Source of the DNA: Eubacteriales bacterium
Lineage (GTDB): Bacteria > Bacillota > Clostridia > Oscillospirales > Oscillospiraceae
Length of the DNA: 64,000 nucleotides
Reading direction: 5' to 3'
NCBI GenBank assembly: GCA_030536255.1
Contig: JAUNQI010000008.1
Location: forward strand, 11,453-75,452
The translations under genes and the position numbers were made by a program. Position 1 is the stretch's first letter. Each line of letters opens with the position of its first letter. The notes under the pieces are model-generated. The model did no database searches, was not told the DNA's origin, and saw only the letters and a list, made by a program, of their open reading frames with translations. This document shows, piece after piece, positions 3,763-54,826 of this stretch.

Positions 3763-4281
3763 TTGCGTAAGACACAGTTTTCCGCGGTTCTTTCAACATT
3801 TATCCTTTGCATGGCTGTCTGGATCCTCCTTACATGGAGCTTTGAGATCCAGGAGCTGGCGGCAGGCGTGATCGTCAGTCTGGGAACAGCGCTTTTCTCA
3901 TCGAGATTTTTCATTCATGATAATGCTTTCCGGTTCTTAAATCCGCTGAACCTGATAAAGCTGGTGCTGTTCGGCTTCGTCCTGCTGAAAGAGATCATCA
4001 AAGCAAACTGCAGCATGGCGGCCAGAGTCCTCGGAGGCTGCAAAAACGTGAATCCCGGAATCGTCAGGATCCCGACGGATATGAAGAGCGATTACGGTCT
4101 TTGTCTTCTGGCAAACTGTATTACGCTTACTCCCGGAACGATCACAATGGATGTCGCGGAAGAAGACGGACAGAATTATTATTACGTTCACTGGATTGAT
4201 GTTACGGAGACGGACAGAAAAGCTGCCGGAGATGTGATCAAAAGCAAGCTTGAAAAAGGTGCAAGGAGGGTTTTTGACTGA
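3763..4281 (+). CDS. mbhA: MrpE/MnhE-like antiporter-module subunit (MbhA-like)
   Basis: It has the ANCITLTPGTITMDV...VHWIDV signature of the MnhE family. A TTG start lies about 9 nt after AAAGGGGA. It is a membrane protein. Confidence 0.72.
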   Translation: MRKTQFSAVLSTFILCMAVWILLTWSFEIQELAAGVIVSLGTALFSSRFFIHDNAFRFLNPLNLIKLVLFGFVLLKEIIKANCSMAARVLGGCKNVNPGIVRIPTDMKSDYGLCLLANCITLTPGTITMDVAEEDGQNYYYVHWIDVTETDRKAAGDVIKSKLEKGARRVFD

Positions 4282-4535
4282 TGGTTGAACTTGTTATCGG
4301 AGCGGCATTTTTCGGCCTGCTTGCATTGAGCCTGGTGTACCGGATTGCAAAGGGACCGACTTCCGGAGACCGGATGATGGCGGTCGACGCATGCGATAAT
4401 CTCCTTTGCTGTGCGATGATCCTGTTTTCAATGTACACCCACCGCGGAATATATCTGGATATTTCCATTATAGGCGCGGTCCTCGGAATAATAGATACGA
4501 TGCTTGTCGGCAGGTATCTGGAAGGGAGTCTGTGA
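4281..4535 (+). CDS. mbhB: MrpF/MnhF-like subunit (MbhB-like)
   Basis: It carries the RIAKGPTSGDRMMAVD motif of the MnhF family. It is an 84-aa protein with 3 TM segments, and its start overlaps the upstream stop (TGATG). Confidence 0.75.
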   Translation: MVELVIGAAFFGLLALSLVYRIAKGPTSGDRMMAVDACDNLLCCAMILFSMYTHRGIYLDISIIGAVLGIIDTMLVGRYLEGSL

Positions 4536-4538
4536 GCT

Positions 4539-4889
4539 GTGGTTGTCAGAATAATTATCGACGTTTTTATTGTTATCGGAGCTTTCTTCGCTCTGGTCGG
4601 GACCATCGGCGTTCTGAAGATGCCGGATACGGTTTGCCGCATGCAGGCTGCAACCTGTATTCCGACGCTCGGCGTGATCTGCGTTTCCATAGGGGCGATC
4701 CTGTATGCTTCCTTTGTTCTTCATTCCGCGGAGAATGCGATCAAAATTGCGGTTATTGCAATCATGATCGTTGTAACAAACCCCGTAGGATCTCATGCGA
4801 TTGCCCGCGGCGCATACAGGGCGGATCTTCGCATGGATAAGAATTATAAGGTAGAGCCGGATGACTACGGGAGGGATTTCTATGAGTAA
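4539..4889 (+). CDS. mbhC: MrpG/MnhG-like subunit (MbhC-like)
   Basis: It carries the GTIGVLKMPDTVCRMQAATCIPTLG motif of the MnhG family. Confidence 0.75.
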   Translation: MVVRIIIDVFIVIGAFFALVGTIGVLKMPDTVCRMQAATCIPTLGVICVSIGAILYASFVLHSAENAIKIAVIAIMIVVTNPVGSHAIARGAYRADLRMDKNYKVEPDDYGRDFYE

Positions 4890-30557: not shown

Positions 30558-31073
30558 TTATTTATGGATTTTTTTCAGAGTTCTGTACAGAACAGGCTCG
30601 GTAATATATACCAGAACAAAATTTGATACGCAATGAATAACGTCAAATCCGATTCCTGCGACCCAGTATGCCACAGCAGACCGCCATCCGGAGATAAATA
30701 AGACAGGAACAGAGCTAAGCAGCCCGAATAATAAACCGCAAATCCCGGCATACACAGCCCAGAACAGTCTGGAGTCTGAATCCTTGAACGGTATGGCTGC
30801 AAGAGCAATCAAAGGCCAGGTGTACAGGTAAGAGACAGACCATAATCCAAATCCATAGATCATTATCTCGATAACCGCAAAAGCGAATGCCGGGTAGAGA
30901 GATTTTCTGCCGTATAATCGTACGCAGAGAATCAAAATCAGGGTAACAGGATGAATGTTGGGAAGAACGTTCATTACTTCCTTGCCGGCAATCATAAGCG
31001 CCGTAATAACGGCGAGCTCTGCAAGCTCCCGTATTGCGGTATTTTTTTTCTCAGAACTGATCATAGCCTTCAT
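30558..31073 (-). CDS. Small polytopic membrane protein, ECF-transporter S-component-like (candidate cobalamin-specific, CbrT-like)
   Basis: It is 171 aa with 5-6 hydrophobic helices. It overlaps the upstream DUF4430 gene by 23 nt and lies behind a cobalamin riboswitch. The family assignment comes from context, not from a recognised motif. Confidence 0.5.
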   Translation of the reverse strand: MKAMISSEKKNTAIRELAELAVITALMIAGKEVMNVLPNIHPVTLILILCVRLYGRKSLYPAFAFAVIEIMIYGFGLWSVSYLYTWPLIALAAIPFKDSDSRLFWAVYAGICGLLFGLLSSVPVLFISGWRSAVAYWVAGIGFDVIHCVSNFVLVYITEPVLYRTLKKIHK

Positions 31074-31452
31074 TCAGCGTAAACTCAATCGTATCCCCGT
31101 CATTGACCGGCTGCTCATCCACTCCGTAGTAAGCCATTTCGCCGTTGACATCATATCCCCACCACTGTTCTTTTGAAGCATCGGCTTTTTCACCGTCAAC
31201 TGTTTCAACCCAGAGTCCGTACGTCTGCTCAGTTCCTCCAATGAGTCCTTTCTTTTCAAGGGCTCCTCTCAGATATTCGGCATCTGTTTTCAGCTTGATC
31301 GTGTTCTGATCTCCGTTCAGATGATTTACGATGACAGTAATTGCTTTATTTCCTTCTTCCGCTTTCGGCGATAAAGTGCTTTTCAGAAAAAGCATAGCGG
31401 CAATCAGAATCAACAGAATGGCGAATGCGATTACAGTCTTCTTGGATTTCAT
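31051..31452 (-). CDS. DUF4430 (transcobalamin-like C-terminal domain) protein, membrane-anchored or secreted
   Basis: It has an N-terminal hydrophobic anchor (MKSKKTVIAFAILLILIAAMLF). The C-terminal WWGYDVNGEMAYYGVDEQPVNDGDTIEFTL pattern is typical of DUF4430. The start at 31452 lies behind AAAAGGAGAA; the track ORF starts at 31485. Confidence 0.7.
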   Translation of the reverse strand: MKSKKTVIAFAILLILIAAMLFLKSTLSPKAEEGNKAITVIVNHLNGDQNTIKLKTDAEYLRGALEKKGLIGGTEQTYGLWVETVDGEKADASKEQWWGYDVNGEMAYYGVDEQPVNDGDTIEFTLNEGYDQF

Positions 31453-31454
31453 AA

Positions 31455-31660
31455 AAAATTCTCCTTTTCTGTATATAACGTGCATACAGAAAAGGAGAAT
31501 TGAAATATCCGGAGTTTACAGGAAGCTGGCCGAAAGTCCGCGGCTTTTCTGTACGACAGATATCCGGGCGATCTGACTTCATATGCAAAAGCATTGTTCA
31601 CAGTGGCGGCTCCGTGGGGGATTTTCACCCCGCTTCTCCCTAAGATATCTTTATTCAGTT
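31455..31660 (-). promoter_or_regulatory. Cobalamin (B12) riboswitch with a terminator / RBS-sequestering expression platform
   Basis: The minus strand reads GGGAGAAGCGGGGTGAAAATCCCCCACGGAGCCGCCACTGTGAAC, matching the GGTGAAAATCC and GCCACTG cores. A B12-box-like GAAGTCAGATCGCCCGGATA follows. A perfect 17-bp hairpin (31458-31474 with 31484-31500) contains the SD and is followed by TTTTT and the ATG. Confidence 0.85.
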
Positions 31661-31729
31661 CAACAAAATAATACCTTATTTCATGTCAGATTTCAAGTAG
31701 CAGAATTGCTTGTTTTTCAAGCCGTATAA

Positions 31730-40135: not shown

Positions 40136-41086
40136 ATGGTAGATATTACTCTTTTAGGAACAGCAGCGACCATGCCTCTGCCTGACAGGGCACTGACGTC
40201 CGTATTCCTTTCATATAGCGGTCACTCGATCCTTTTCGATTGCGGAGAGGGTACTCAGACCGCTGCACGGAAATCACATATCAGTCTGATGAAAACAGAC
40301 CTTATCGCGTTGACGCATTATCACGGTGATCATATTTTCGGTCTGCCGGGTCTTCTTCAGACAATGGGGTGTCTTGGAAGGACACAGCCCCTATACATTA
40401 TTGGACCGGACGGGCTGGAAAAGGTAATGGAATTGATCGTTTCTATGAGCGGACAGATGCCTTTCCCGATATATGCGCTTTTTCCGATGGAGCGTTCAGA
40501 AAGTAAGGATTTTTATTCATTCAGGATCTCAGATTATATTTCCGAATGGCCGGGAGAGACATCGCTGACTGTTTTTAAAACAGAGCATCGGGTGGAGAGC
40601 TGCGGATATAGTTTCCATGTCAGGCGTCCGGGGAAATTTATTCCTGAAAATGCTGAAAAAGCCGGAGTACCGAAAAGATTATGGGGGACTTTGCAGAAAG
40701 GAGAATCTATAGAACTGGATGATGGGAGAGTGATATACCCTGATTCTGTGCTCGGACAGGAAAGAAAAGGACTCAGCGTGGTGTTTTCCGGGGATACATC
40801 TCCCTGCAGTAATCTTATAAAAGCTTCTGCTGATGCTGATCTTCTCATTTGTGATTCAACATACGGCGACAGCAGCCATACGGTTCAGGCTGAGAAATAC
40901 GGACACAGCACATTTGCCGAAGCTGCGGGAGTAGCGAAGGAAGCAGGCGTGAAAAGATTGTGGCTGACACATTTCTCACAGATCATGGAGGATCCGGATG
41001 AATTTCTGAATAACGCGGCAGAGGTATTTCCTGACAGTGTGTGCGGAAAGGATGGACTATCCGTTTCCTTAAAATTTGAGGATTGA
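40136..41086 (+). CDS. rnz: Ribonuclease Z (tRNA 3' endonuclease)
   Basis: It is an MBL-fold protein with the HYHGDH motif, an N-terminal LLGTAATMPLPDR and a C-terminal THFS. Confidence 0.85.
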   Translation: MVDITLLGTAATMPLPDRALTSVFLSYSGHSILFDCGEGTQTAARKSHISLMKTDLIALTHYHGDHIFGLPGLLQTMGCLGRTQPLYIIGPDGLEKVMELIVSMSGQMPFPIYALFPMERSESKDFYSFRISDYISEWPGETSLTVFKTEHRVESCGYSFHVRRPGKFIPENAEKAGVPKRLWGTLQKGESIELDDGRVIYPDSVLGQERKGLSVVFSGDTSPCSNLIKASADADLLICDSTYGDSSHTVQAEKYGHSTFAEAAGVAKEAGVKRLWLTHFSQIMEDPDEFLNNAAEVFPDSVCGKDGLSVSLKFED

Positions 41087-41404: not shown

Positions 41405-42781
41405 ATGGCAGAACATAATGTTACCGTTGAGAGCACGCTGAAGGCTCTTCTCAACGACAAAAAGTATTCTACTCTGAAGGATATTTTGATTACAATGAAT
41501 CCTTCAGACATCGCAGCAGTATTTGAAGAACTTGATGAAGACAGAACTCCGCTTCTTTTTCGCCTTTTACCGAAAGAGCTGGCGGCGGATACCTTTGTCG
41601 AGATGGAACCCGAGCTGCAGGAGCTCCTGATCAAAGGGTTCTCAGATTCCGAGCTTCGTGAAGTGGTTCAGGAATTATATGTTGACGATGCAGCGGACCT
41701 TGTGGAAGAAATGCCTGCGAATGTCGTCAGGAGAATTCTTGCTCAGGCTGATCCCCAGATGCGCAAAGAGATCAATGAGATCCTTCGCTATCCGGAAAAT
41801 TCCGCCGGATCGATTATGACAACGGAGTACGTTGATCTGCGGAAGGATATGACGGTTGGCGAAGCGATTACCCGTATCCGCAGAACGGGAATAGATAAAG
41901 AAACGATCTATACCTGTTATGTTACGGAGGCCAGAACCCTTGTAGGCTTCCTCTCTGTAAAGGATCTTCTTCTTGCTCCGGATGATGAAGACAAAATTTC
42001 TGAGATAATGGACACAAAAATTATCTCAGTAAATACAATGACGGACCAGGAAGAAGTTGCACAGATGCTTTCCAAATATAACTTCCTTGCCTTGCCGGTC
42101 GTTGATAATGAAAACCGTCTTGTCGGTATCATCACATTCGACGATGCAATGGATGTTATGGAAGAAGAGGTTACGGAAGATATCGAAAAGATGGCAGCTA
42201 TCCTGCCCTCGGATAAAACTTATCTCCGCTCTTCACCCTGGGAGCTTTTCAAGCACCGTATTCCCTGGCTCCTTTTGCTAATGGTCTCTGCAACGTTTAC
42301 GGGGATGATCATCACAAGATTTGAGGATGCGCTTGCTGCTCAGGTTGTCCTGACGTCATTTATCCCGATGCTGATGGATACGGGCGGTAATTCCGGTTCC
42401 CAGTCCTCTGTAACCGTAATTCGTGCTTTGTCTCTTGATGAGCTCGAATTCAGTGATCTCGTCGGCGTAATCTGGAAAGAAATAAGAACGGCTGTTCTTT
42501 GCGGAATCGTACTGTCTGCAGCGTGCTTTGCAAAAATAATGATCGTTGACAGACTTCTCCTTGGAAATACGGAAGTTACTGTATTCGTTGCATTGGTGGT
42601 ATGTTTAACGATGGCCCTTACTGTGCTTGTCGCAAAGATTATCGGCTGCTCTCTGCCCATGCTGGCGAAGAAGATCGGATTTGACCCTGCGGTGATGGCA
42701 AGTCCTTTTATAACGACAATCGTTGATGCGCTTTCTCTTCTGGTGTATTTTGCCATTGCCAGTGCGGTTCTGTTTGCGTGA
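41405..42781 (+). CDS. mgtE: Magnesium transporter MgtE
   Basis: It has the MgtE N-domain, a CBS pair and a TM domain with the PMLMDTGGNSGSQS motif. Length is 458 aa. Confidence 0.92.
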   Translation: MAEHNVTVESTLKALLNDKKYSTLKDILITMNPSDIAAVFEELDEDRTPLLFRLLPKELAADTFVEMEPELQELLIKGFSDSELREVVQELYVDDAADLVEEMPANVVRRILAQADPQMRKEINEILRYPENSAGSIMTTEYVDLRKDMTVGEAITRIRRTGIDKETIYTCYVTEARTLVGFLSVKDLLLAPDDEDKISEIMDTKIISVNTMTDQEEVAQMLSKYNFLALPVVDNENRLVGIITFDDAMDVMEEEVTEDIEKMAAILPSDKTYLRSSPWELFKHRIPWLLLLMVSATFTGMIITRFEDALAAQVVLTSFIPMLMDTGGNSGSQSSVTVIRALSLDELEFSDLVGVIWKEIRTAVLCGIVLSAACFAKIMIVDRLLLGNTEVTVFVALVVCLTMALTVLVAKIIGCSLPMLAKKIGFDPAVMASPFITTIVDALSLLVYFAIASAVLFA

Positions 42782-42783
42782 AT

Positions 42784-43269
42784 ATGGAAATAGAAAGAAA
42801 ATGGCTTATATCCCGGAATGATATTCCGTATGATTTGTCCCAGCTCGATTCAATGTTAATAGAGCAGGCGTACTTGTCATTCTATCCGACAATCAGAATT
42901 AGAAGAATTGACGGGAATCAGTATATCCTTACAATTAAAACACACCCTGAAAAGTTGGATTATTCCGGTTTGCAGAGAGAAGAGTATGAAATACCGCTTG
43001 CTGAAGAAGAGTATGAAGCTCTTAAAGAGCGGGTAATCGGGAATTCAATTGTAAAAACAAGGTACATCCATAAAACAGATGAAGGATGTAAAGAAGAAAT
43101 TGATATTTTCCATAATGATATGGATGGCCTGGCTCTGATGGAAATCGAATTTGAGGATGTTGATTCCGCATTGCGTTATCCGGATCCGGAGTGGATAATC
43201 CGGGATGTGACCTATGATAACCGTTATAAGAACAGTTCCCTTGCAAAAAACGGTCTGCCGTCGGATTGA
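42784..43269 (+). CDS. CYTH-domain protein (triphosphate tunnel metalloenzyme family)
   Basis: It has the N-terminal EIERKWL (ExExK) signature and later acidic strands (EIDIF, MEIEFED). Length is about 161 aa. The ORF begins 2-3 nt after or overlapping the mgtE stop. Confidence 0.8.
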   Translation: MEIERKWLISRNDIPYDLSQLDSMLIEQAYLSFYPTIRIRRIDGNQYILTIKTHPEKLDYSGLQREEYEIPLAEEEYEALKERVIGNSIVKTRYIHKTDEGCKEEIDIFHNDMDGLALMEIEFEDVDSALRYPDPEWIIRDVTYDNRYKNSSLAKNGLPSD

Positions 43270-43287
43270 AACAGTTATACAGACAAT

Positions 43288-43329
43288 AACAGTTCCGCAC
43301 CCTGCAAAATAGCAGGGTGCGGAACTGTT
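43288..43329. terminator. Bidirectional terminator between the CYTH gene and the CARF-nuclease gene
   Basis: A perfect 18-bp stem (AACAGTTCCGCACCCTGC / GCAGGGTGCGGAACTGTT) has a 6-nt loop. Confidence 0.85.
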
Positions 43330-43348
43330 TCACAAAGGAAATTCACGA

Positions 43349-44536
43349 TTATTTATTTTGCTGGAAGTGTATTTTGATTTGATCTGAAAGCGTTCCTTTT
43401 TTCAGATCGTCCAGACCGATTATATCAATCCCGAGAGCTGACGCTCTGCGTTTCGTAATCGGCCTGCTGTTTTCCGTCGTAACAGCGAAAGCTCTGGCAC
43501 CATTCCCGCCAAAATGGTCCTTCAGAATTGCCAGCTCGTTTAGAGCATCGGTATCTATCGGGCAGGTTTTGCATGAAATAAAAACGGGCGTAATTCCGAA
43601 AGAGGCAGTTACATCAATTTCATTGGTAACATTTTCATTTTTTTCCGCATTTTCCCAGTAGACAATTGTGCTGCAAAGAACGTCGTTGAAAATTCCGGAG
43701 TCAATACAGGCTTTCCATGTATATAACTCAAGAACGCTGCCGACATCTCTGAGCCAGAAGCGGGTCTGCTTGTCTGTAAAGTCAAACAGGATCCTGTCTT
43801 CTTCCTGAATTTGAAGGTCATGGATGAAACCGAGACGCTCAACCTGATACAGGAATTCCTTATCAATTGTGATTTTGTTTCCACGTTCGCCTTTTACGCT
43901 GAAGGAAGAACTGACGTGCAGTTTGGTTTCTCCGTTTTTATCCGGCTGTGATGCACGCTGAAACCAGTTTATAATCTTTCCCCATTGCTTTCGGTATTTA
44001 AGGAAAAGTTTAAAGAATTCATCTATCTTGTTGTAATACTTAAAAAGTAATTCACTGTCAACACGGCCCTTCTGCATTTTACCGCCTGCCATGAGGAAAT
44101 AGTCCTCGACCTTATAGCAGAATTCCGGTTTGATGTTCTCTGCAAACTCCGCATTGCTTATATTGAAAAAACGCTGTTTCTTCCAGCTGAAAGTAAAGGA
44201 CGGAAGCTTGCTGGAAGCACAGAACTGTCCTGCGGCGAACAACGCAGCATCAGAGCCTCCCGTAATATCTATGGCACAATCAGGATATCTGCTGACAACT
44301 GTTTCAAGCTGTCTGTAAACTTTGTCAGTATGCAGAAGGCTTGTGTCCATAAAAATAGTTTCAGTGTTCAGATTTCTCCATGCAATATAATCAGTGATTT
44401 TCTTTTGTTCACTTTTGCTTTGAGCAATTGAAGAAGGGCACAGATATACGATCCGTTCCGGACGAAATACATCTGCGGCAAGAAAATTCTCCAAAGGACG
44501 TTCATCGTAAAGTTCAATTAAAGTTTTCATTTCCAT
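43349..44536 (-). CDS. CARF-like domain fused to PD-(D/E)xK nuclease (DUF1887 / Card1-Can2-like cyclic-oligoadenylate-type effector)
   Basis: The N-terminal half is Rossmann-like (RIVYLCPSS ... CAIDITGGSDAALFAAG). The C-terminal half has NDV...NEIDVTASFGITPVFISCKTC, matching the D...ExD...xCK restriction-endonuclease-fold motif of the Card1 family. The start is at 44536 or 44530. Assignment is by motif recognition only. Confidence 0.6.
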   Translation of the reverse strand: MEMKTLIELYDERPLENFLAADVFRPERIVYLCPSSIAQSKSEQKKITDYIAWRNLNTETIFMDTSLLHTDKVYRQLETVVSRYPDCAIDITGGSDAALFAAGQFCASSKLPSFTFSWKKQRFFNISNAEFAENIKPEFCYKVEDYFLMAGGKMQKGRVDSELLFKYYNKIDEFFKLFLKYRKQWGKIINWFQRASQPDKNGETKLHVSSSFSVKGERGNKITIDKEFLYQVERLGFIHDLQIQEEDRILFDFTDKQTRFWLRDVGSVLELYTWKACIDSGIFNDVLCSTIVYWENAEKNENVTNEIDVTASFGITPVFISCKTCPIDTDALNELAILKDHFGGNGARAFAVTTENSRPITKRRASALGIDIIGLDDLKKGTLSDQIKIHFQQNK

Positions 44537-44837
44537 CCCACTGATATTCTGATAAATCTACTTTGTTGTTGATTACTTCTATTCCGTCATCCTGAAGCAG
44601 CTTCTTCTGCCACTCCAATCCGCCAAAGGCAAAAGCTCCGCTGAGCATACCCTGAGAATTTACGACTCTGAAACAGGGAATCGTTGCAGGATCCGGATTG
44701 ACATGCAAAGCGTTTCCCACGGCTCTCGCGGCTCGCGGATTCCCGGAAAGTGCGGCAATCTGACCGTATGTCGCAACGTTACCGGCAGGAATTTTCATTA
44801 CTGTTTTATATATTTTTTCGTAAAATGTATTACTCAT
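44514..44837 (-). CDS. MGMT/Atl-family DNA-binding domain protein (single-domain, 107 aa)
   Basis: It has the Ogt C-terminal-domain pattern (VATYGQIAALSGNPRAARAVGNAL ... IPCFRVVNSQG). The active-site PCHR is PCFR here. Confidence 0.75.
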   Translation of the reverse strand: MSNTFYEKIYKTVMKIPAGNVATYGQIAALSGNPRAARAVGNALHVNPDPATIPCFRVVNSQGMLSGAFAFGGLEWQKKLLQDDGIEVINNKVDLSEYQWDGNENFN

Positions 44838-44843
44838 AATCTA

Positions 44844-45410
44844 TTATTTCAGTCTCAGATCTTTACCTGTAATGAATCCGTTCAGCGGCTTAAACAGTAT
44901 CGCTGCGACAACAAGATCAAGGAACATGCAGGCGAAGATATAGCTCCCATTATAAAGAGCAGAATAAAACCATGGCGTTGTCATAGTCATTCCGAAGAAA
45001 TGTTCAGGCATATATTCTCCCCAAACCGTTGCCCCGACAATATACGATATGATAAACCTTGCAGCGCTTCCGGCAAGAATTCCTGAGAAAAAGCCGTATT
45101 TTCTTTTATGAAAAAGACCTGCCAGACCGATTACTGTATATGCAAGAATATAATCTCCGATGATTGACTGCCATCCCCATGCATATGCACCATCCAGCAT
45201 GAGCTGCAGAAGGCTGAGAACAAAGCTTGCAAGGATGCCGTATCCAAAGCCCCATCTGGAACAATAAATGAAAATTGGGAGCATATTCAGTGTGATGGAT
45301 CCGCCATTTGGCAAAGCAAATATTTTAATGTAGCCGAGAATTTGTGCTGCAGCAATCAGCAGAGCTCCCTCACAGAGCGCGCGCAGCTTCAAATGAGAAT
45401 TGTTTTTCAT
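44844..45410 (-). CDS. thiT: Energy-coupling-factor thiamine transporter S component ThiT
   Basis: It is a 188-aa 6-TM protein with PNGGSITLNMLPIF and GLAGLF patterns of the ThiT/YuaJ family. A TPP riboswitch lies immediately upstream. Confidence 0.85.
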   Translation of the reverse strand: MKNNSHLKLRALCEGALLIAAAQILGYIKIFALPNGGSITLNMLPIFIYCSRWGFGYGILASFVLSLLQLMLDGAYAWGWQSIIGDYILAYTVIGLAGLFHKRKYGFFSGILAGSAARFIISYIVGATVWGEYMPEHFFGMTMTTPWFYSALYNGSYIFACMFLDLVVAAILFKPLNGFITGKDLRLK

Positions 45411-45430
45411 TTTTCCTCCAAAAATGAAAC

Positions 45431-45562
45431 AAAAAAACGCAGATTAAATTGCTAACCTGCGATGGATGTATGTCTGTCCCTACGCCGGCATTATCCGAAC
45501 AGGTTCTTCGGGTTCGAAAGCGTCATTCCGTTTCATCTCAGCCGGGACATACCCAGCTCCCC
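45431..45562 (-). promoter_or_regulatory. TPP (THI-box) riboswitch with intrinsic terminator
   Basis: The minus strand reads GGGGAGCTGGG...GGCTGAGA...GAACCCGAAGAACCTGTTCGGATAATGCCGGCGTAGGGA. A CGCAG/CTGCG hairpin and T7 follow, then the RBS GGAGG and the thiT ATG. Confidence 0.88.
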
Positions 45563-45606
45563 AATATAATTAATGCGAGTTGTTCAGACAGATAACTGTC
45601 CTTATA

Positions 45607-45634
45607 ATTGTATCACCCATTCCCCAAATGTCAA
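45607..45634 (-). promoter_or_regulatory. Sigma-A-type promoter of the TPP riboswitch-thiT unit
   Basis: The minus strand has TTGACA, a 16-nt spacer and TACAAT, about 40 nt upstream of the aptamer. Confidence 0.6.
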
Positions 45635-45729
45635 CAATTACATATTTGCAATTTAATACAGCATTTTAAGTGAATACAAAATTTCAGCTGCTATATAGTC
45701 GGCATTGAAGATTTTTGCATACAGGAAAT

Positions 45730-46440
45730 TCAGCGATTCGGAAGGAGAAAACTTACATTTCCGTCGGAAAAGATTGAAATATCCGCAGGAAGATAGTCCG
45801 GTGCCGGAAGAGGATCCGGGTAATTTCCGGATAAAACATGCAAGGAGAGGTCAATCAGCTGGTCTACTGCTGAATATGGTACCGTCAGTTTGTGATGTGA
45901 GGAATAGAACAAGTCCGCTTCAGACTCATATTGCTTAAGATATCTGAGAGAATGGTTATAAGCGGACATGCTTCTCCCGTTACCAAACATATAAATCGGG
46001 CCGGTCTGAACGGTATCACCTGAAATGATAAACCGCTTTCCCCTTTCTAAAAGCGCAATACTTCCCGGAGTATGACCGGGCAGCAGAAGAACCTCAAATC
46101 TGAAGCTTCCGATATCTTCGATCTCTCCTTCACGAATAGGACAGAGAGGTATCTGTTTTTCGTATTTTTCCGAAAAGCGTGAAAATTCTGATGGATGAAG
46201 ATAAGCACGGTCAAATTGGTAAGCACATCCGGTGTGATCCTGATCGCTGTGAGTCAGAATGAGCTTGACCGGATTATCCGTTATTTTTCGTATATGAGAC
46301 AGAAGATCACCGCCGTGAAGGGCATCGACAGCAATTGCCTGCTCAGTACCGGTAAATAGAAAGCTTCGTACGCCGCTCTGCTCAAAACACCAGAAATTAT
46401 CCGCTATCTGATATTCTTTAATTGTTAAGTCTTTTTCCAT
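45730..46440 (-). CDS. MBL-fold metallo-hydrolase
   Basis: It carries LILTHSDQDHTG (a variant of HxHxDH) and LLPGHTPGS. Length is 236 aa. Confidence 0.75.
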   Translation of the reverse strand: MEKDLTIKEYQIADNFWCFEQSGVRSFLFTGTEQAIAVDALHGGDLLSHIRKITDNPVKLILTHSDQDHTGCAYQFDRAYLHPSEFSRFSEKYEKQIPLCPIREGEIEDIGSFRFEVLLLPGHTPGSIALLERGKRFIISGDTVQTGPIYMFGNGRSMSAYNHSLRYLKQYESEADLFYSSHHKLTVPYSAVDQLIDLSLHVLSGNYPDPLPAPDYLPADISIFSDGNVSFLLPNR

Positions 46441-52972: not shown

Positions 52973-54826
52973 TTATTCCTTGTTCTGTGACATCAATACT
53001 ACTGTCTCAACATGTTCTGTGTGCGGGAACATATCCACGGGCTGGATACGCTGCACTCGGTACTCTCCTGCAGTAAGTAACCGCAGATCTCTTGCCAGTG
53101 TTTCCGGATTACAGGAGATATATACAACGCGTTTCGGCTTCATTTTTATCAGCGAAGAAAGAAACTGCTCATCGCTCCCCGCACGGGGAGGATCCATAAA
53201 TACTACATCGCAGCTTTGTCGGTCAGCAGCCATCTTCAGCATGAATTCTCCTGCATCAGCGCAGGTAAACCATGCATTCTCAACACTGTTTATTTTTGCA
53301 TTCTTAATGGCATCCTTAACAGCGTCTTTGTTTATTTCCACTCCGGATACGCTTTTGCATCTTCCGGCTGCCGTAAGTCCGATGGTTCCGGTTCCGCAGT
53401 AAGCGTCGAGTACAGTTTCGCTTCCGGTGAGTCCGGCAAAGTCTATCGCAGTATTGTATAATGTCTCTGTCAGTTTGGAATTGATCTGGTAAAACGATTT
53501 GGCGGAAATTCTGAACTTCAGTCCGCAAAGTTCATCGGTAATGTATCCGGGGCCGTATAGTATTTTTTCCTGCTGACCGAGCACTACCGGTGTATATGCT
53601 GTATTGATGTTCATAATTACCGTGGTGATTTCAGGATGTTTTTTCAGCAGTGCTGCAAGGAATGGTTTCTGAAGCTTGAATATAGGGGAGGTCGTTACTA
53701 GAACTACCATGGTTTCTCCGGTTTTACTGCTTCTTTTTACAAGAATATGACGGAGAAATCCGGTATCTCTTCTTTCATCATATGCGGTGATTTTGAATTC
53801 CCGCATCATTCCACGAATAGTACGAATGATTTCATCGGCCTTTTCATCCTCAATCATACAGCTGTCTACAGCTACGATCCGGTGTTCTGAAGACTGATAT
53901 ATTCCGGAGATGATTTTCCCTTTGGAATCAAGCCCGAGAGCCGCATGGCATTTGTTGCGATAATGATAGGGGTCGTCCATTCCGATAATCGGCTGAATCT
54001 TTCCGTACTTTCCGAGCAGCTCTCCGAGCCGCTTCTGCTTTACGGCGAGCTGCTGCTGATAGGGAAGATTCTGCATCTGGCATCCGCCGCATTTTTTCGC
54101 ATACGGGCATTTCTCAAATGTATTGCTGATTGGTTTATGAGTTGCTTCGTCAGTTCTTACGGAGCTATTATTTTGTTCCTTCTGACCTTCGGAAGAGAAT
54201 TCTGTCCATGGATAAATGCTGGGGGGATCCATGGTAAATTCCATATCCTTTCCGGTTTTCGGATGCCTGAATTTCAGATGGTATGACCATAGAGCTATCC
54301 CGCATCCGTCTCCGATTGCACCGTATTTTCTGTCGCCGACGAGCGGCATACCACGGGATGAAAACTGTGCCCGGATCTGATGGGTGCGTCCTGTAAGAAG
54401 ATGAATGTGTACAAGTGAGAGTGAACCCTTGCTGGAAAGAACGAAATATTCAAGGGCTGCCTCTCTCACACCCCTGCGCATGCGTTTTACAACATATGTT
54501 TTATTTTCGGAAGCTTCCCGGAACAGCAAATCATCATATCTTCCGGAGTTCGGATTTGGAACACCATGAACTGCTGCCATATAATCCTTATCAAAGGTTT
54601 TCTCGGATATCTGACGGCTGAGTTCAGCAGCTGCTTCCTGAGACTTTGCGAAGACCATTAGCCCGCCAACAACCTGATCCAGCCGATGCACAGTTTTAAT
54701 ATCGGCAGTGCTGTCATTGATTGCTTCGCGAATAAGGGAAGGCATTCCGCCGGGTTCATCGGTGGATACTACTCCGGCGGGTTTCACGCAGACAATGATT
54801 TGCTTATCCTGGTATATTATTTCCAT
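52973..54826 (-). CDS. Fusion protein: RluA-family pseudouridine synthase (N-terminal) plus RumA/RlmD-type 23S rRNA (uracil-C5)-methyltransferase (C-terminal)
   Basis: The N-terminal roughly 215 aa carry VHRLDQVVGGLMVFAKS and GRTHQIRAQF. The C-terminal roughly 380 aa carry the Fe-S cysteines CPYAKKCGGCQ...NKC, the SAM motif DAYCGTGTIG, DPPRAG and the catalytic YISCNP. It is one uninterrupted 617-codon ORF. Confidence 0.8.
   Translation of the reverse strand: MEIIYQDKQIIVCVKPAGVVSTDEPGGMPSLIREAINDSTADIKTVHRLDQVVGGLMVFAKSQEAAAELSRQISEKTFDKDYMAAVHGVPNPNSGRYDDLLFREASENKTYVVKRMRRGVREAALEYFVLSSKGSLSLVHIHLLTGRTHQIRAQFSSRGMPLVGDRKYGAIGDGCGIALWSYHLKFRHPKTGKDMEFTMDPPSIYPWTEFSSEGQKEQNNSSVRTDEATHKPISNTFEKCPYAKKCGGCQMQNLPYQQQLAVKQKRLGELLGKYGKIQPIIGMDDPYHYRNKCHAALGLDSKGKIISGIYQSSEHRIVAVDSCMIEDEKADEIIRTIRGMMREFKITAYDERRDTGFLRHILVKRSSKTGETMVVLVTTSPIFKLQKPFLAALLKKHPEITTVIMNINTAYTPVVLGQQEKILYGPGYITDELCGLKFRISAKSFYQINSKLTETLYNTAIDFAGLTGSETVLDAYCGTGTIGLTAAGRCKSVSGVEINKDAVKDAIKNAKINSVENAWFTCADAGEFMLKMAADRQSCDVVFMDPPRAGSDEQFLSSLIKMKPKRVVYISCNPETLARDLRLLTAGEYRVQRIQPVDMFPHTEHVETVVLMSQNKE

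Follow-up and report, generated by a model that had tools for sequence, protein, structure and literature searches.

Organization of the gene cluster

Three closely packed genes on the minus strand of the window (the whole 64-kb stretch of DNA that was analysed) lie behind a riboswitch-bearing leader. The features of this cluster, listed in the order in which the leader would be transcribed and ending with the convergent gene on the other side, are as follows.

45607-45634, minus strand: sigma-70-type promoter-like element, TTGACA-16-TACAAT with a TG extension (pattern match only)
45459-45573, minus strand: TPP (THI-box) riboswitch aptamer, RF00059, full model
45438-45461, minus strand: putative expression platform, a terminator-like hairpin (10-bp stem plus T-run) and then TTTTTTTGTT
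44844-45410, minus strand: thiT, S component of an ECF-type thiamine transporter, 188 aa (PF09515 Thia_YuaJ, 1.1e-30)
44514-44837, minus strand: small MGMT-family ORF, single domain and Atl-sized, 107 aa (PF01035, 8.7e-30)
43349-44536, minus strand: CARF-nuclease ORF, 395 aa (43349-44530, or 393 aa, from the ATG at 44530)
43288-43329, no strand assigned: G+C-rich hairpin of 18 bp, with G-C at 11 of its 18 pairs, in the space where the nuclease and CYTH genes converge
42778-43269, plus strand: CYTH-domain ORF, convergent, 80 nt downstream of the nuclease gene

The ORF coordinates agree with the tight packing described in the original prediction, which had been made from the sequence alone. Only 6 nt separate thiT from the MGMT-like gene, and the MGMT-like stop overlaps the start of the nuclease gene by 17 nt if translation begins at 44530 or by 23 nt if it begins at 44536. 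The start at 44530 is the likely one, because all homologues begin with MKTLIELYDE and the NCBI protein has 393 aa. The leader had also been read correctly. A consensus scan, a kind of search that internal promoters may escape, gave 11 of 12 consensus matches for the site at 45634-45607, which is the best site between 43000 and 46000 and the only one to reach that score, and the aptamer downstream of it matches RF00059 with 58.9 bits, above the gathering score of 54.3, at a distance of 48 nt from the thiT start. The terminator-like hairpin of the platform lies about 28 nt before the thiT start codon and would presumably act as an OFF-switch. The same TPP element precedes thiT in two homologous loci (L081 and L084). 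An MFE fold of the leader gave nothing beyond the Rfam and terminator calls.

A pattern scan found no terminator-like sites between the thiT, MGMT-like and nuclease genes, as had been predicted; one pattern match within thiT (44960-44943) has no T-run. The simplest reading of this spacing is that the nuclease and MGMT-like genes are co-transcribed with thiT behind the riboswitch. The 18-bp hairpin beyond the nuclease gene is a strong one with a weak T-run, and can be called only the likely end of the transcript. The leader and its first gene resemble the standard Firmicutes thiT/TPP regulon in the aptamer, the terminator-type platform and the Thia_YuaJ gene, but differ from it in that two unrelated genes are appended without a visible terminator, an arrangement seen in the window and in L081 and L084 only.

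A full-length Can2/Card1 homologue

The product of 43349-44530 is a full-length homologue of the Can2/Card1 (DUF1887) nucleases, as the original prediction had proposed. The PADLOC model CARF4--CARF_PDDEXK (PDLC01895) matches it over its full length (5.2e-45, residues 3-378 of 395), and the Pfam model PF09002 (Card1_endonuc) matches residues 265-380 above its cut-off (1.3e-9). The AF2 model of the protein (pLDDT 92.7) finds as its best Foldseek match the founding DUF1887 protein, VC1899 of Vibrio cholerae (PDB 1XMX; E 6e-24, TM 0.76/0.79), which is also the best sequence match in the PDB for the nuclease domain. Full-length matches to SthCan2 (2.5e-20), Cdn1, Card1 and TbrCan2 follow, and the TM scores for VC1899, Can2, Cdn1 and Card1 run from 0.64 to 0.79, so that the comparison with Card1 and Can2 structures on which the prediction had staked this identity came out in its favour. 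Matches confined to the CARF domain were found for the sensor half of the protein, to Csm6, Cam1, Csa3 and Sso2081. The parts of the protein are encoded as follows.

44132-44530, minus strand: CARF (Rossmann-like) sensor domain, about residues 3-135, with alternating strands and helices, placed by alignment to the SthCan2 CARF domain
44249-44269, minus strand: CARF ligand-loop motif D90-I-T-G-G-S-D96, aligned to N93-V-T-G-G-T-K99 of Can2
43397-43774, minus strand: PD-(D/E)xK restriction-endonuclease-fold domain, about residues 255-380, placed by PF09002 and by alignment to the nuclease domain of VC1899
43568-43621, minus strand: catalytic motif E306-x-D308...S321-C-K323, with E270 upstream (E-ExD-SCK)

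The fold and domain order are those of the characterized enzymes SthCan2 (7BDV), TresuCard1 (6WXW), TbrCan2 (8Q3Y) and Cdn1 (9U49) over their full length, although identity to them is only 12-16%. The likeness to VC1899 extends to the same CARF plus PD-(D/E)xK architecture and to an Asp at the position of Can2 Ser19 (PMC7969007); the two proteins differ in that they are 18% identical and come from different phyla, and in that VC1899 has Arg96 and ECK where the window clade has Asp/Glu and SCK. The notion that the arrangement at this locus was undescribed is not upheld, since orphan DUF1887 proteins have already been published (VC1899; PMC7969007) and NCBI already names the protein a "DUF1887 family CARF protein".

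The catalytic site

The EIDV...ISCKT motif that had been picked out by eye is present and belongs to the same class, E-ExD-(E/S)CK, as the published Can2 catalytic motif (PMC10783487), being made up here of E270, E306-I-D308 and S321-C-K323. None of the six residues E270, E306, D308, S321, C322 and K323 varies among the 121 close homologues, and in the wider clade 114 of the 118 representatives keep the set EEDSCK; such invariance suggests that catalysis is under selection. It is likely that the protein forms a homodimer and is a PD-(D/E)xK nuclease dependent on divalent metal.

A different view would be that the protein is a relic, a structural or regulatory protein with weak or no catalysis that has ceased to be a regulated nuclease. 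The precedent comes from the nearest solved structure, VC1899, since in vitro this protein displayed only weak residual RNase activity and no DNase activity (PMC7969007), and the metal-binding Glu of ECK is indeed a Ser in the window protein. The loss of that Glu was considered as a sign of an inactive enzyme and rejected, because (E/S)CK is the accepted motif and TbrCan2, an active enzyme, also has Ser at this position. With the six catalytic residues so uniformly kept in close and distant members alike, a catalytically spent protein is quite improbable.

The CARF ligand pocket

The ITGGSD sequence had been proposed as the ligand loop of the CARF domain. The motif is present and aligns at the loop, but when set against NxTGGTK it lacks both the Asn and the Lys. 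NxTGGTK mediates the binding of cyclic oligoadenylates (cOA) and is reported to be conserved in all seven Can2 clades (PMC10783487). In the window protein the Asn is D90 and the phosphate-binding Lys is D96, by HMMER as well as hhalign, and the clade version of the motif becomes DxTGG(S/T)D. All 121 close homologues have D or E at position 90 and again at position 96; among 118 representatives of the wider clade the corresponding counts are 112 and 98. The cA4 contacts conserved between Can1 and Can2 are Ser19, Thr42, Lys99 and Tyr118 (PMC7969007), and the residues that align with them are D11, P34, D96 and T115, so that none of the four is kept; this mapping comes from a low-identity sequence alignment (hhalign probability 71%) and not from a superposition. 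The residue that follows strand beta-1, a phosphate contact in Can2, is an Asp. Acidic residues occupy three pocket positions (D11, D90 and D96), and this remodelled, acidic pocket leads us to infer that a signal different from cyclic tetra-adenylate gates the nuclease. VC1899 again offers a parallel, being an orphan DUF1887 protein whose predicted pocket is acidic or hydrophobic and which is not regulated by cA4 (PMC7969007). The window protein shares all three traits by which a VC1899-like orphan group can be drawn, namely the architecture of DUF1887, the lack of any tie to type III systems and a pocket ill suited to the polyanionic cA4, the group being a descriptive one taken from PMC7969007 and not a curated family.

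CARF pockets are plastic: TbrCan2 tolerates the changes T12A/N13A and Y128A, and Cdn1 binds cA3, cA4 and cA6. Given this plasticity, cOA may be bound through other residues or through bridging metal ions.

Genomic neighbourhood and linkage to CRISPR

Of the source genome, the analysis took in the 64-kb window plus roughly 4 kb past the 5' end, the latter carrying hydrogenase maturation genes. Homologous loci were obtained by an alignment-based contig search; a single-protein query had given none. Within the window the predicted orphan status of the nuclease was borne out: the other 60 ORFs match 22 PADLOC families, none of them a Cas model, and no CRISPR-like array is present. Among the homologous loci, arrays were absent from 79 of 80 GTDB loci and from all 80 metagenome loci, each with flanks of 6-10 kb, and the PADLOC matches of the 106 adjacent proteins from the GTDB loci include no Cas model. 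By these checks neither the window nor any of the 160 loci places the gene in or beside a type III CRISPR-Cas locus, a further difference from the Can2, Card1 and Cdn1 enzymes. One doubtful 18-mer in three copies (L011) is the lone exception among the 160 loci.

The possibility that the protein is an ordinary ancillary effector working in trans, with cA4 or cA6 from a distant Cas10 binding the CARF dimer and activating the nuclease, has to be weighed against these observations. Such a role would suit a protein that matches the Can2/Card1 fold family over its full length, in profile as in structure, and that has an intact catalytic motif, all the more because all characterized active members are cOA-activated type III effectors, and a view of the genome limited to the window and some 4 kb beyond leaves room for a Cas10 elsewhere. 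The replacement of both the Asn and the Lys of NxTGGTK by Asp and the loss of every contact conserved between Can1 and Can2 point the other way, as do the CRISPR-free surroundings found by the checks run on the window and the 160 loci, the position of the gene in stable housekeeping synteny and the unresponsiveness of VC1899 to cA4. On balance an effector in trans appears unlikely, and the nuclease would seem to work independently of type III CRISPR.

The original prediction had also stated that the window contained no cyclase of the Cas10 or CD-NTase type. Its statement on cas genes and arrays stood, but it had overlooked the CYTH-domain ORF. Class IV adenylate cyclases belong to the CYTH group. 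The idea that this ORF supplies a cyclase dedicated to the nuclease was nevertheless rejected, for the ORF overlaps mgtE and stays with mgtE even in L090, where the nuclease gene lies 6 kb off.

Other kinds of partnership were sought with similar outcome. Genes of varied housekeeping function directly flank the nuclease gene in the 80 GTDB loci, their 106 products matching 121 Pfam families and each family turning up at most 3 times; close co-directional upstream genes in the homologous loci encode TruA, peptidase U32 and similar proteins. A conserved partner gene was rejected on two counts, since no neighbour proved to recur when 1105 flanking ORFs were clustered, and a Pfam search of 133 immediate neighbours repeated any one family no more than 3-4 times. 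A defence island was rejected as well, the Pfam matches of about 30 window ORFs being to hydrogenase, transport, metabolic and RNA-modification genes. The PADLOC matches in the window include mad, PDC-S01 and REase_II models; they are likely generic domain matches, because two of the same models, mad2 and mad8, recur among ordinary neighbours elsewhere.

Descent and distribution of the clade

The nuclease gene had been thought AT-rich, at roughly one-third G+C against more than 40% in its neighbours, and hence acquired. The count was mistaken: its G+C content is 41.9%, compared with 43.2% for thiT, 43.8% for the MGMT-like gene, 41.1% for the EamA gene, 39.4% for the CYTH gene and 46.2% for mgtE, which gives no compositional sign of acquisition. 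Identity of the nuclease among relatives (57-82%) tracks that of the flanking genes. Neighbour-like G+C, the kept synteny with mgtE, CYTH and rnz and the matching divergence together argue for vertical descent, and recent horizontal acquisition was rejected on G+C, GC3 and this synteny with matching divergence. An origin from a mobile element was also rejected, since no copies were found in 50,697 phage records or in IMG/VR and the one match, a weak one, was to a megaplasmid.

The clade comprises about 431 clusters at 50% identity with E values of 1e-30 or better, and its members are common in gut and rumen Oscillospiraceae; relatives are encoded on 344 candidate stretches from GTDB species-representative genomes. 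The nuclease is a member of this large and well-conserved clade, which resides on the chromosomes of gut Clostridia and has no CRISPR linkage.

The MGMT-like protein and its linkage to the nuclease

That the gene upstream encodes an MGMT/Atl-like protein was confirmed by PF01035, which covers residues 5-85 of its 107 residues, and by its best solved relatives, Atl1 of Schizosaccharomyces pombe (3GVA) and vpAtl of Vibrio parahaemolyticus (2KIF), both with E values of about 3e-17. The protein falls between the established classes. Like the Atl proteins it is small, with a single MGMT C-terminal domain and no N-terminal domain, and it shares with them RV(I/V)NSxG and with vpAtl (PWFRV) the Phe after the active-site position; in the Atl proteins, however, the acceptor Cys of PCHRV is replaced by Trp or Ala (PWHRV/PAHRV), whereas here the active-site motif, IPCFRVVNSQG, keeps the Cys. 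It differs from canonical MGMT/Ogt, which has PCHRV and in most bacteria an N-terminal domain, in that the His is a Phe and the N-terminal domain is missing. It belongs instead to a widespread Clostridia subfamily with PC[YF]RVVN (NCBI name "MGMT family protein"), and 104 of its 120 nearest homologues have PC[YF]RV.

The MGMT-like gene adjoins the nuclease gene in three relatives with nuclease identities of 82% (L081), 70% (L084) and 71% (L088), and is not adjacent in three others at 57-64% (P0008, P0009 and P0012). The pair stands behind thiT only in the window, L081 and L084; in L088 an RNA methyltransferase gene lies upstream. Spacing within the pair varies from a 17-nt overlap (window) through a 4-nt overlap (L088) to a separation of 10 nt (L084). 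In L071/L164, from one unrelated species, the nuclease gene is followed at a distance of 4 nt by the start of a canonical Ogt of 174 aa, an independent adjacency. For two such adjacencies among roughly 150 lineages a rough Poisson estimate gives a chance of about 0.02-0.09. The tight spacing of the pair in two upstream contexts, together with the separate downstream ogt, hints at more than chance.

It could be imagined from these adjacencies that the two proteins form an alkylation-damage module, in which the Atl-like protein would bind O6-alkylguanine and either hand over the lesion to the nuclease or activate incision. The close spacing despite differing upstream genes, the second adjacency, the status of Atl1 and vpAtl as lesion readers and the presence of mutY three genes upstream would all accord with such a module. 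The wider survey does not: of the 160 more distant homologous loci 158 lack an MGMT-domain neighbour, as do P0008, P0009 and P0012; the small MGMT-like partner is present only in relatives of at least 70% identity; and two sampled members of the small-MGMT subfamily (P0128 and P0137) occur by themselves, without a Card1-like gene next to them. The retained acceptor Cys (PCFRV) also sets the protein apart from true Atl proteins. The conserved pairing of nuclease and lesion reader that the original prediction had envisaged is thus not borne out, a damage module seems rather unlikely, and the thiT/MGMT wiring is read as a lineage-specific gene order.

A probable CRISPR-independent nuclease with a remodelled sensor

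The reading that best accommodates these results, with a probability of roughly 0.6, is that the gene encodes a CRISPR-independent, VC1899-like orphan nuclease, probably not gated by cA4, which is carried on the thiT transcript in this lineage only. According to this model, a metal-dependent PD-(D/E)xK nuclease would act without type III CRISPR, and its remodelled CARF pocket would answer to another signal, for which a ligand that is cationic or bridged by metal is a candidate, and a partner protein another. Since the pair sits behind thiT, transcription of the nuclease gene is probably by read-through from the thiT promoter, and plentiful thiamine pyrophosphate would then attenuate the nuclease transcript by way of the TPP riboswitch.

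CARF domains are understood almost wholly as receivers of Cas10-made cyclic oligoadenylates, and the question of what orphan CARF domains bind dates from VC1899. The present clade retains the nuclease active site while having fixed acidic residues at positions that in Can2 contact the cA4 phosphates. If a CRISPR-independent orphan nuclease is the correct reading, the clade would offer a tractable system in which to look for a new CARF ligand and for a CRISPR-independent role of Can2-type enzymes.

A bolder combination of the pieces can be put together, in which the nucleases of the acidic-pocket clade are ligand-gated and sense a non-cOA signal, while in this lineage the nuclease has been taken on to make incisions for an Atl-like reader of O6-alkylguanine and the two are expressed only as long as the thiT riboswitch stays open, that is, under thiamine limitation. 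The outcome would be an endonuclease module for DNA damage, gated by metabolism and assembled around a sensor of CRISPR type; this combination is very doubtful. The riboswitch and MGMT wiring, confined as it is to a few close relatives, is of minor interest.

The nuclease and its catalytic motif

The last gene of the thiT-MGMT-nuclease run encodes a 395-aa protein that matches Pfam Card1_endonuc, is covered over residues 3-378 by the CARF4--CARF_PDDEXK profile (5.2e-45), and already carries the NCBI name 'DUF1887 family CARF protein'. An AlphaFold2 model built from 32 homologues is confident (pLDDT 92.7, pTM 0.89). Compared by Foldseek, this model aligns over its full length with VC1899, an orphan DUF1887 protein of Vibrio cholerae (E 6e-24, TM 0.76/0.79), and also with SthCan2, another Can2 (8BAO), Cdn1, Card1 and TbrCan2, so that the Card1/Can2-like fold of the original prediction proves correct. 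The CARF half by itself matches Csm6, Cam1, Csa3 and the ring nuclease Sso2081.

The catalytic motif E-ExD-(E/S)CK is common to most Can2 orthologues (Jungfer et al., PMC10783487). It is whole in the window nuclease (E270, E306-I-D308, S321-C-K323), invariant among 121 close homologues, and found in 114 of 118 full-length sequences that represent the wider clade; the active enzyme TbrCan2 likewise has Ser at the ECK glutamate position. A Can2-type motif on a Can2/VC1899 fold predicts a dimeric, metal-dependent nuclease. VC1899 appears idle in vitro, and the window protein could be a catalytically idle relic of that sort; set beside a motif retained in this way, such a relic is very improbable. 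The reading that we prefer, with a probability of about 0.6, is that the predicted nuclease would be gated not by cyclic tetra-adenylate (cA4) but by another ligand or a partner and would act apart from type III CRISPR, that its mRNA in this lineage would come chiefly by read-through from the thiT promoter, and that its wiring to thiT and the MGMT-like gene would be a matter of local gene order.

The sensor pocket

The CARF motif NxTGGTK, which mediates the binding of cyclic oligoadenylate (cOA), is common to all seven Can2 clades (Jungfer et al., PMC10783487). It is not kept in the window nuclease, where both HMMER and hhalign place D90-I-T-G-G-S-D96 onto N93-V-T-G-G-T-K99 of SthCan2. Four cA4 contacts conserved between Can1 and Can2 (Ser19, Thr42, Lys99 and Tyr118 of SthCan2; PMC7969007) align with D11, P34, D96 and T115, a mapping that comes from a low-identity alignment (hhalign probability 71%) and not from superposition. 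All 118 close homologues that extend over position 11 have D there, and each of the 121 has D or E at position 96. In the wider clade, 109 of the 118 representatives have D at position 11, 112 have D/E at position 90 and 98 have D/E at position 96. The conserved acidic residues that stand in place of NxTGGTK and of the cA4 contacts make this, as judged from alignment, a conserved pocket that is chemically unlike the cA4 site.

VC1899 is an orphan CARF protein without type III CRISPR association, is not regulated by cA4, and has a pocket that is negatively charged or hydrophobic (Zhu et al., PMC7969007). The altered, non-cA4-type pocket of the window clade resembles that of VC1899, which is the closest known thing to the window nuclease; the window clade differs in having Asp/Glu at the Lys/Arg position and SCK instead of ECK. 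The likeness to Can2 and Card1 lies in the modelled fold and the predicted mode of action, but the window nuclease fails two tested family features, the cOA-binding motif and the CRISPR association. That there is a DUF1887 gene family and that it includes orphans is already known. No description of how large the acidic-pocket clade is, of its fixed signature or of its housekeeping setting was found in the literature searched.

Genomic context and inheritance

The nuclease family comprises 2891 clusters at 90% identity, and 431 clusters at 50% identity have E values of 1e-30 or better. In the GTDB species-representative collection, 344 candidate stretches encode a relative, and 80 of these loci come mainly from gut and rumen Oscillospiraceae and their relatives. 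No CRISPR-like array was found in the window and no Cas model among the PADLOC matches of its other 60 ORFs, as originally predicted; at the source organism, this search for cas10 and other Cas components covered the 64-kb window. Nor was there a convincing CRISPR array in the 80 GTDB loci (10-kb flanks) or in 80 metagenome loci (6-kb flanks), or a Cas model among the PADLOC matches of the 106 proteins encoded next to the nuclease gene in the GTDB loci. The nuclease might still serve as a type III effector acting in trans; weighed together with the altered pocket, this is unlikely.

The 106 GTDB-locus neighbours are diverse, with 121 Pfam families that each occur at most three times. Close upstream genes on the same strand encode TruA, peptidase U32, flavin reductase and similar proteins, and of 76 loci, 57 have an upstream gene that is either divergent or separated by over 60 nt. 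One MAG (JAFSEW01, RGIG3079) has two contigs, L032 and L057, with one Card1-like gene each, reflecting either paralogues or strain heterogeneity within the bin.

The window is ordinary chromosome, with hydrogenase and Mrp-like genes, CNNM/CorC transporters, an AMP-binding enzyme, clostripain, RNase Z, MgtE, MutY and GNATs. Outside 43349-44536, PADLOC gave single-ORF matches, not assigned to ORFs, to mad1/2/3/8, PDC-S01 (1e-56) and a 'Type II nicking endonuclease' model. These are probably generic domain matches, because Pfam found only metabolic and housekeeping genes on about 30 window ORFs and because mad2 and mad8 matches recur among ordinary neighbours in other loci.

The nuclease gene had been suggested to be an AT-rich acquisition. 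Its G+C content (41.9%) is in fact like that of thiT (43.2%) and the MGMT-like (43.8%), EamA (41.1%) and CYTH (39.4%) genes. The gene is vertically inherited and not a recent acquisition, since the mgtE-CYTH-rnz neighbourhood is kept in relatives and nuclease identity tracks that of the flanks (70% vs 66-86% for flanking genes in homologue locus L084; 57% vs 59-88% in L090). No copy was detected in 50,697 phage genomes or IMG/VR, and there was one weak megaplasmid match.

Gene layout and transcription

The features of the thiT-MGMT-nuclease run are as follows; promoters and terminators were called by pattern matching only.

Features of the run and its flanks (window coordinates)
45634-45607, minus: promoter-like site TTGACA-16-TACAAT, the sole strong one in 43000-46000
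45459-45573, minus: complete TPP riboswitch (Rfam, 58.9 bits vs gathering score 54.3)
45461-45438, minus: hairpin and T-run, about 28 nt ahead of the thiT start
44844-45410, minus: thiT ORF, 188 aa (Thia_YuaJ match, 1.1e-30)
44514-44837, minus: MGMT-like ORF, 107 aa
43349-44536, minus: nuclease ORF, 395 aa; start taken as the second ATG, 44530
43329-43288: 18-bp G+C-rich hairpin 3' of the nuclease gene

This layout bears out the original prediction in its three minus-strand ORFs, the single recognisable promoter, the riboswitch before thiT, the 6 nt between the stop of thiT and the start of the MGMT-like gene, and the overlap of the MGMT-like stop with the nuclease ORF (23 nt from the first start, 17 nt from the ATG at 44530). 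The later start was chosen because all homologues have MKTLIELYDE as their N-terminus and the NCBI protein of identical sequence has 393 aa. As had been claimed, a pattern scan revealed no convincing terminator between the three genes. If the nuclease mRNA is mainly thiT read-through, it would fall once TPP closes the riboswitch. Elsewhere in the window, a cobalamin riboswitch (31538-31693, minus; RF00174, 32.5 bits, barely over gathering) precedes two small minus-strand ORFs (31051-31485 and 30558-31073).

The MGMT-like partner

The 107-aa protein consists of one MGMT C-terminal domain (PF01035, 8.7e-30), and among solved structures it comes closest to Atl1 and vpAtl, both lesion readers (E about 3e-17). 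It retains the acceptor Cys (PCFRVVNSQG); where Atl1 has PWHRV, vpAtl PWFRV and MGMT PCHRV, its active-site motif is PCFRV. It is a member of a family of about 105 aa that is widespread in Clostridia (2683 matches), and 104 of its 120 nearest members (P0121-P0240) have PC[YF]RV (PC[YF]RVVN for PCHRV). These small proteins are Atl-sized, with the acceptor Cys and without the His of PCHRV. Two members on long contigs (72% and 65% identical) occur alone, without a Card1-like neighbour.

The linkage of the two genes held among close relatives but not beyond. The thiT-MGMT-nuclease order and the riboswitch are present in L081 (82% nuclease identity) and L084 (70%), and L088 (71%) keeps the MGMT-nuclease pair, with an RNA methyltransferase in the place of thiT and no riboswitch. 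The MGMT-like neighbour is missing from relatives at 64%, 60% and 57% identity, and of 160 loci that are more distant, 158 have no MGMT-family neighbour. The other two (L071 and L164, 99% identical) are one species, in which a canonical 174-aa Ogt (PCHRV) begins 4 nt past the nuclease stop. That species is an Oscillospiraceae with a nuclease just 49% identical to the window protein; the Ogt genes (L071 11181-11705, plus; L164 7169-7702, plus) lie in the opposite order to the window pair. Two independent MGMT-family adjacencies among about 150 lineages (rough Poisson P about 0.02-0.09) are suggestive and fall short of calling a module. A genuine Atl-nuclease damage module, with Atl-like relatives and the retained pair on its side and the distant loci against it, is quite unlikely. 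The arrangement with the riboswitch and the MGMT-like gene is genuine and limited to one lineage.

Neighbouring genes

A CYTH-domain ORF (42778-43269, plus; PF01928, 8e-7) shares 4 nt with the 3' end of mgtE and is convergent with the nuclease gene, with 80 nt between them; the mgtE-CYTH pair is retained in L084, L088 and L090. The CYTH family takes in both triphosphatases and class IV adenylate cyclases. In L089, the locus of a 60%-identical relative, an RNase Z-like metallo-beta-lactamase protein (3828-4757, plus) is encoded on the same strand 10 nt before the Card1-like gene, and its precomputed Pfam matches include Anti-Pycsar_Apyc1. Its window homologue (40136-41086, plus; 64% identical) lies 2.3 kb from the nuclease gene on the other strand. 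A 617-aa window ORF (52973-54826, minus) joins an RluA-type pseudouridine synthase domain and a tRNA (uracil-5) methyltransferase domain in one protein; the synthase part has a stand-alone 216-aa homologue, which is encoded immediately upstream of the Card1-like gene in L090 and one gene further upstream in L089.
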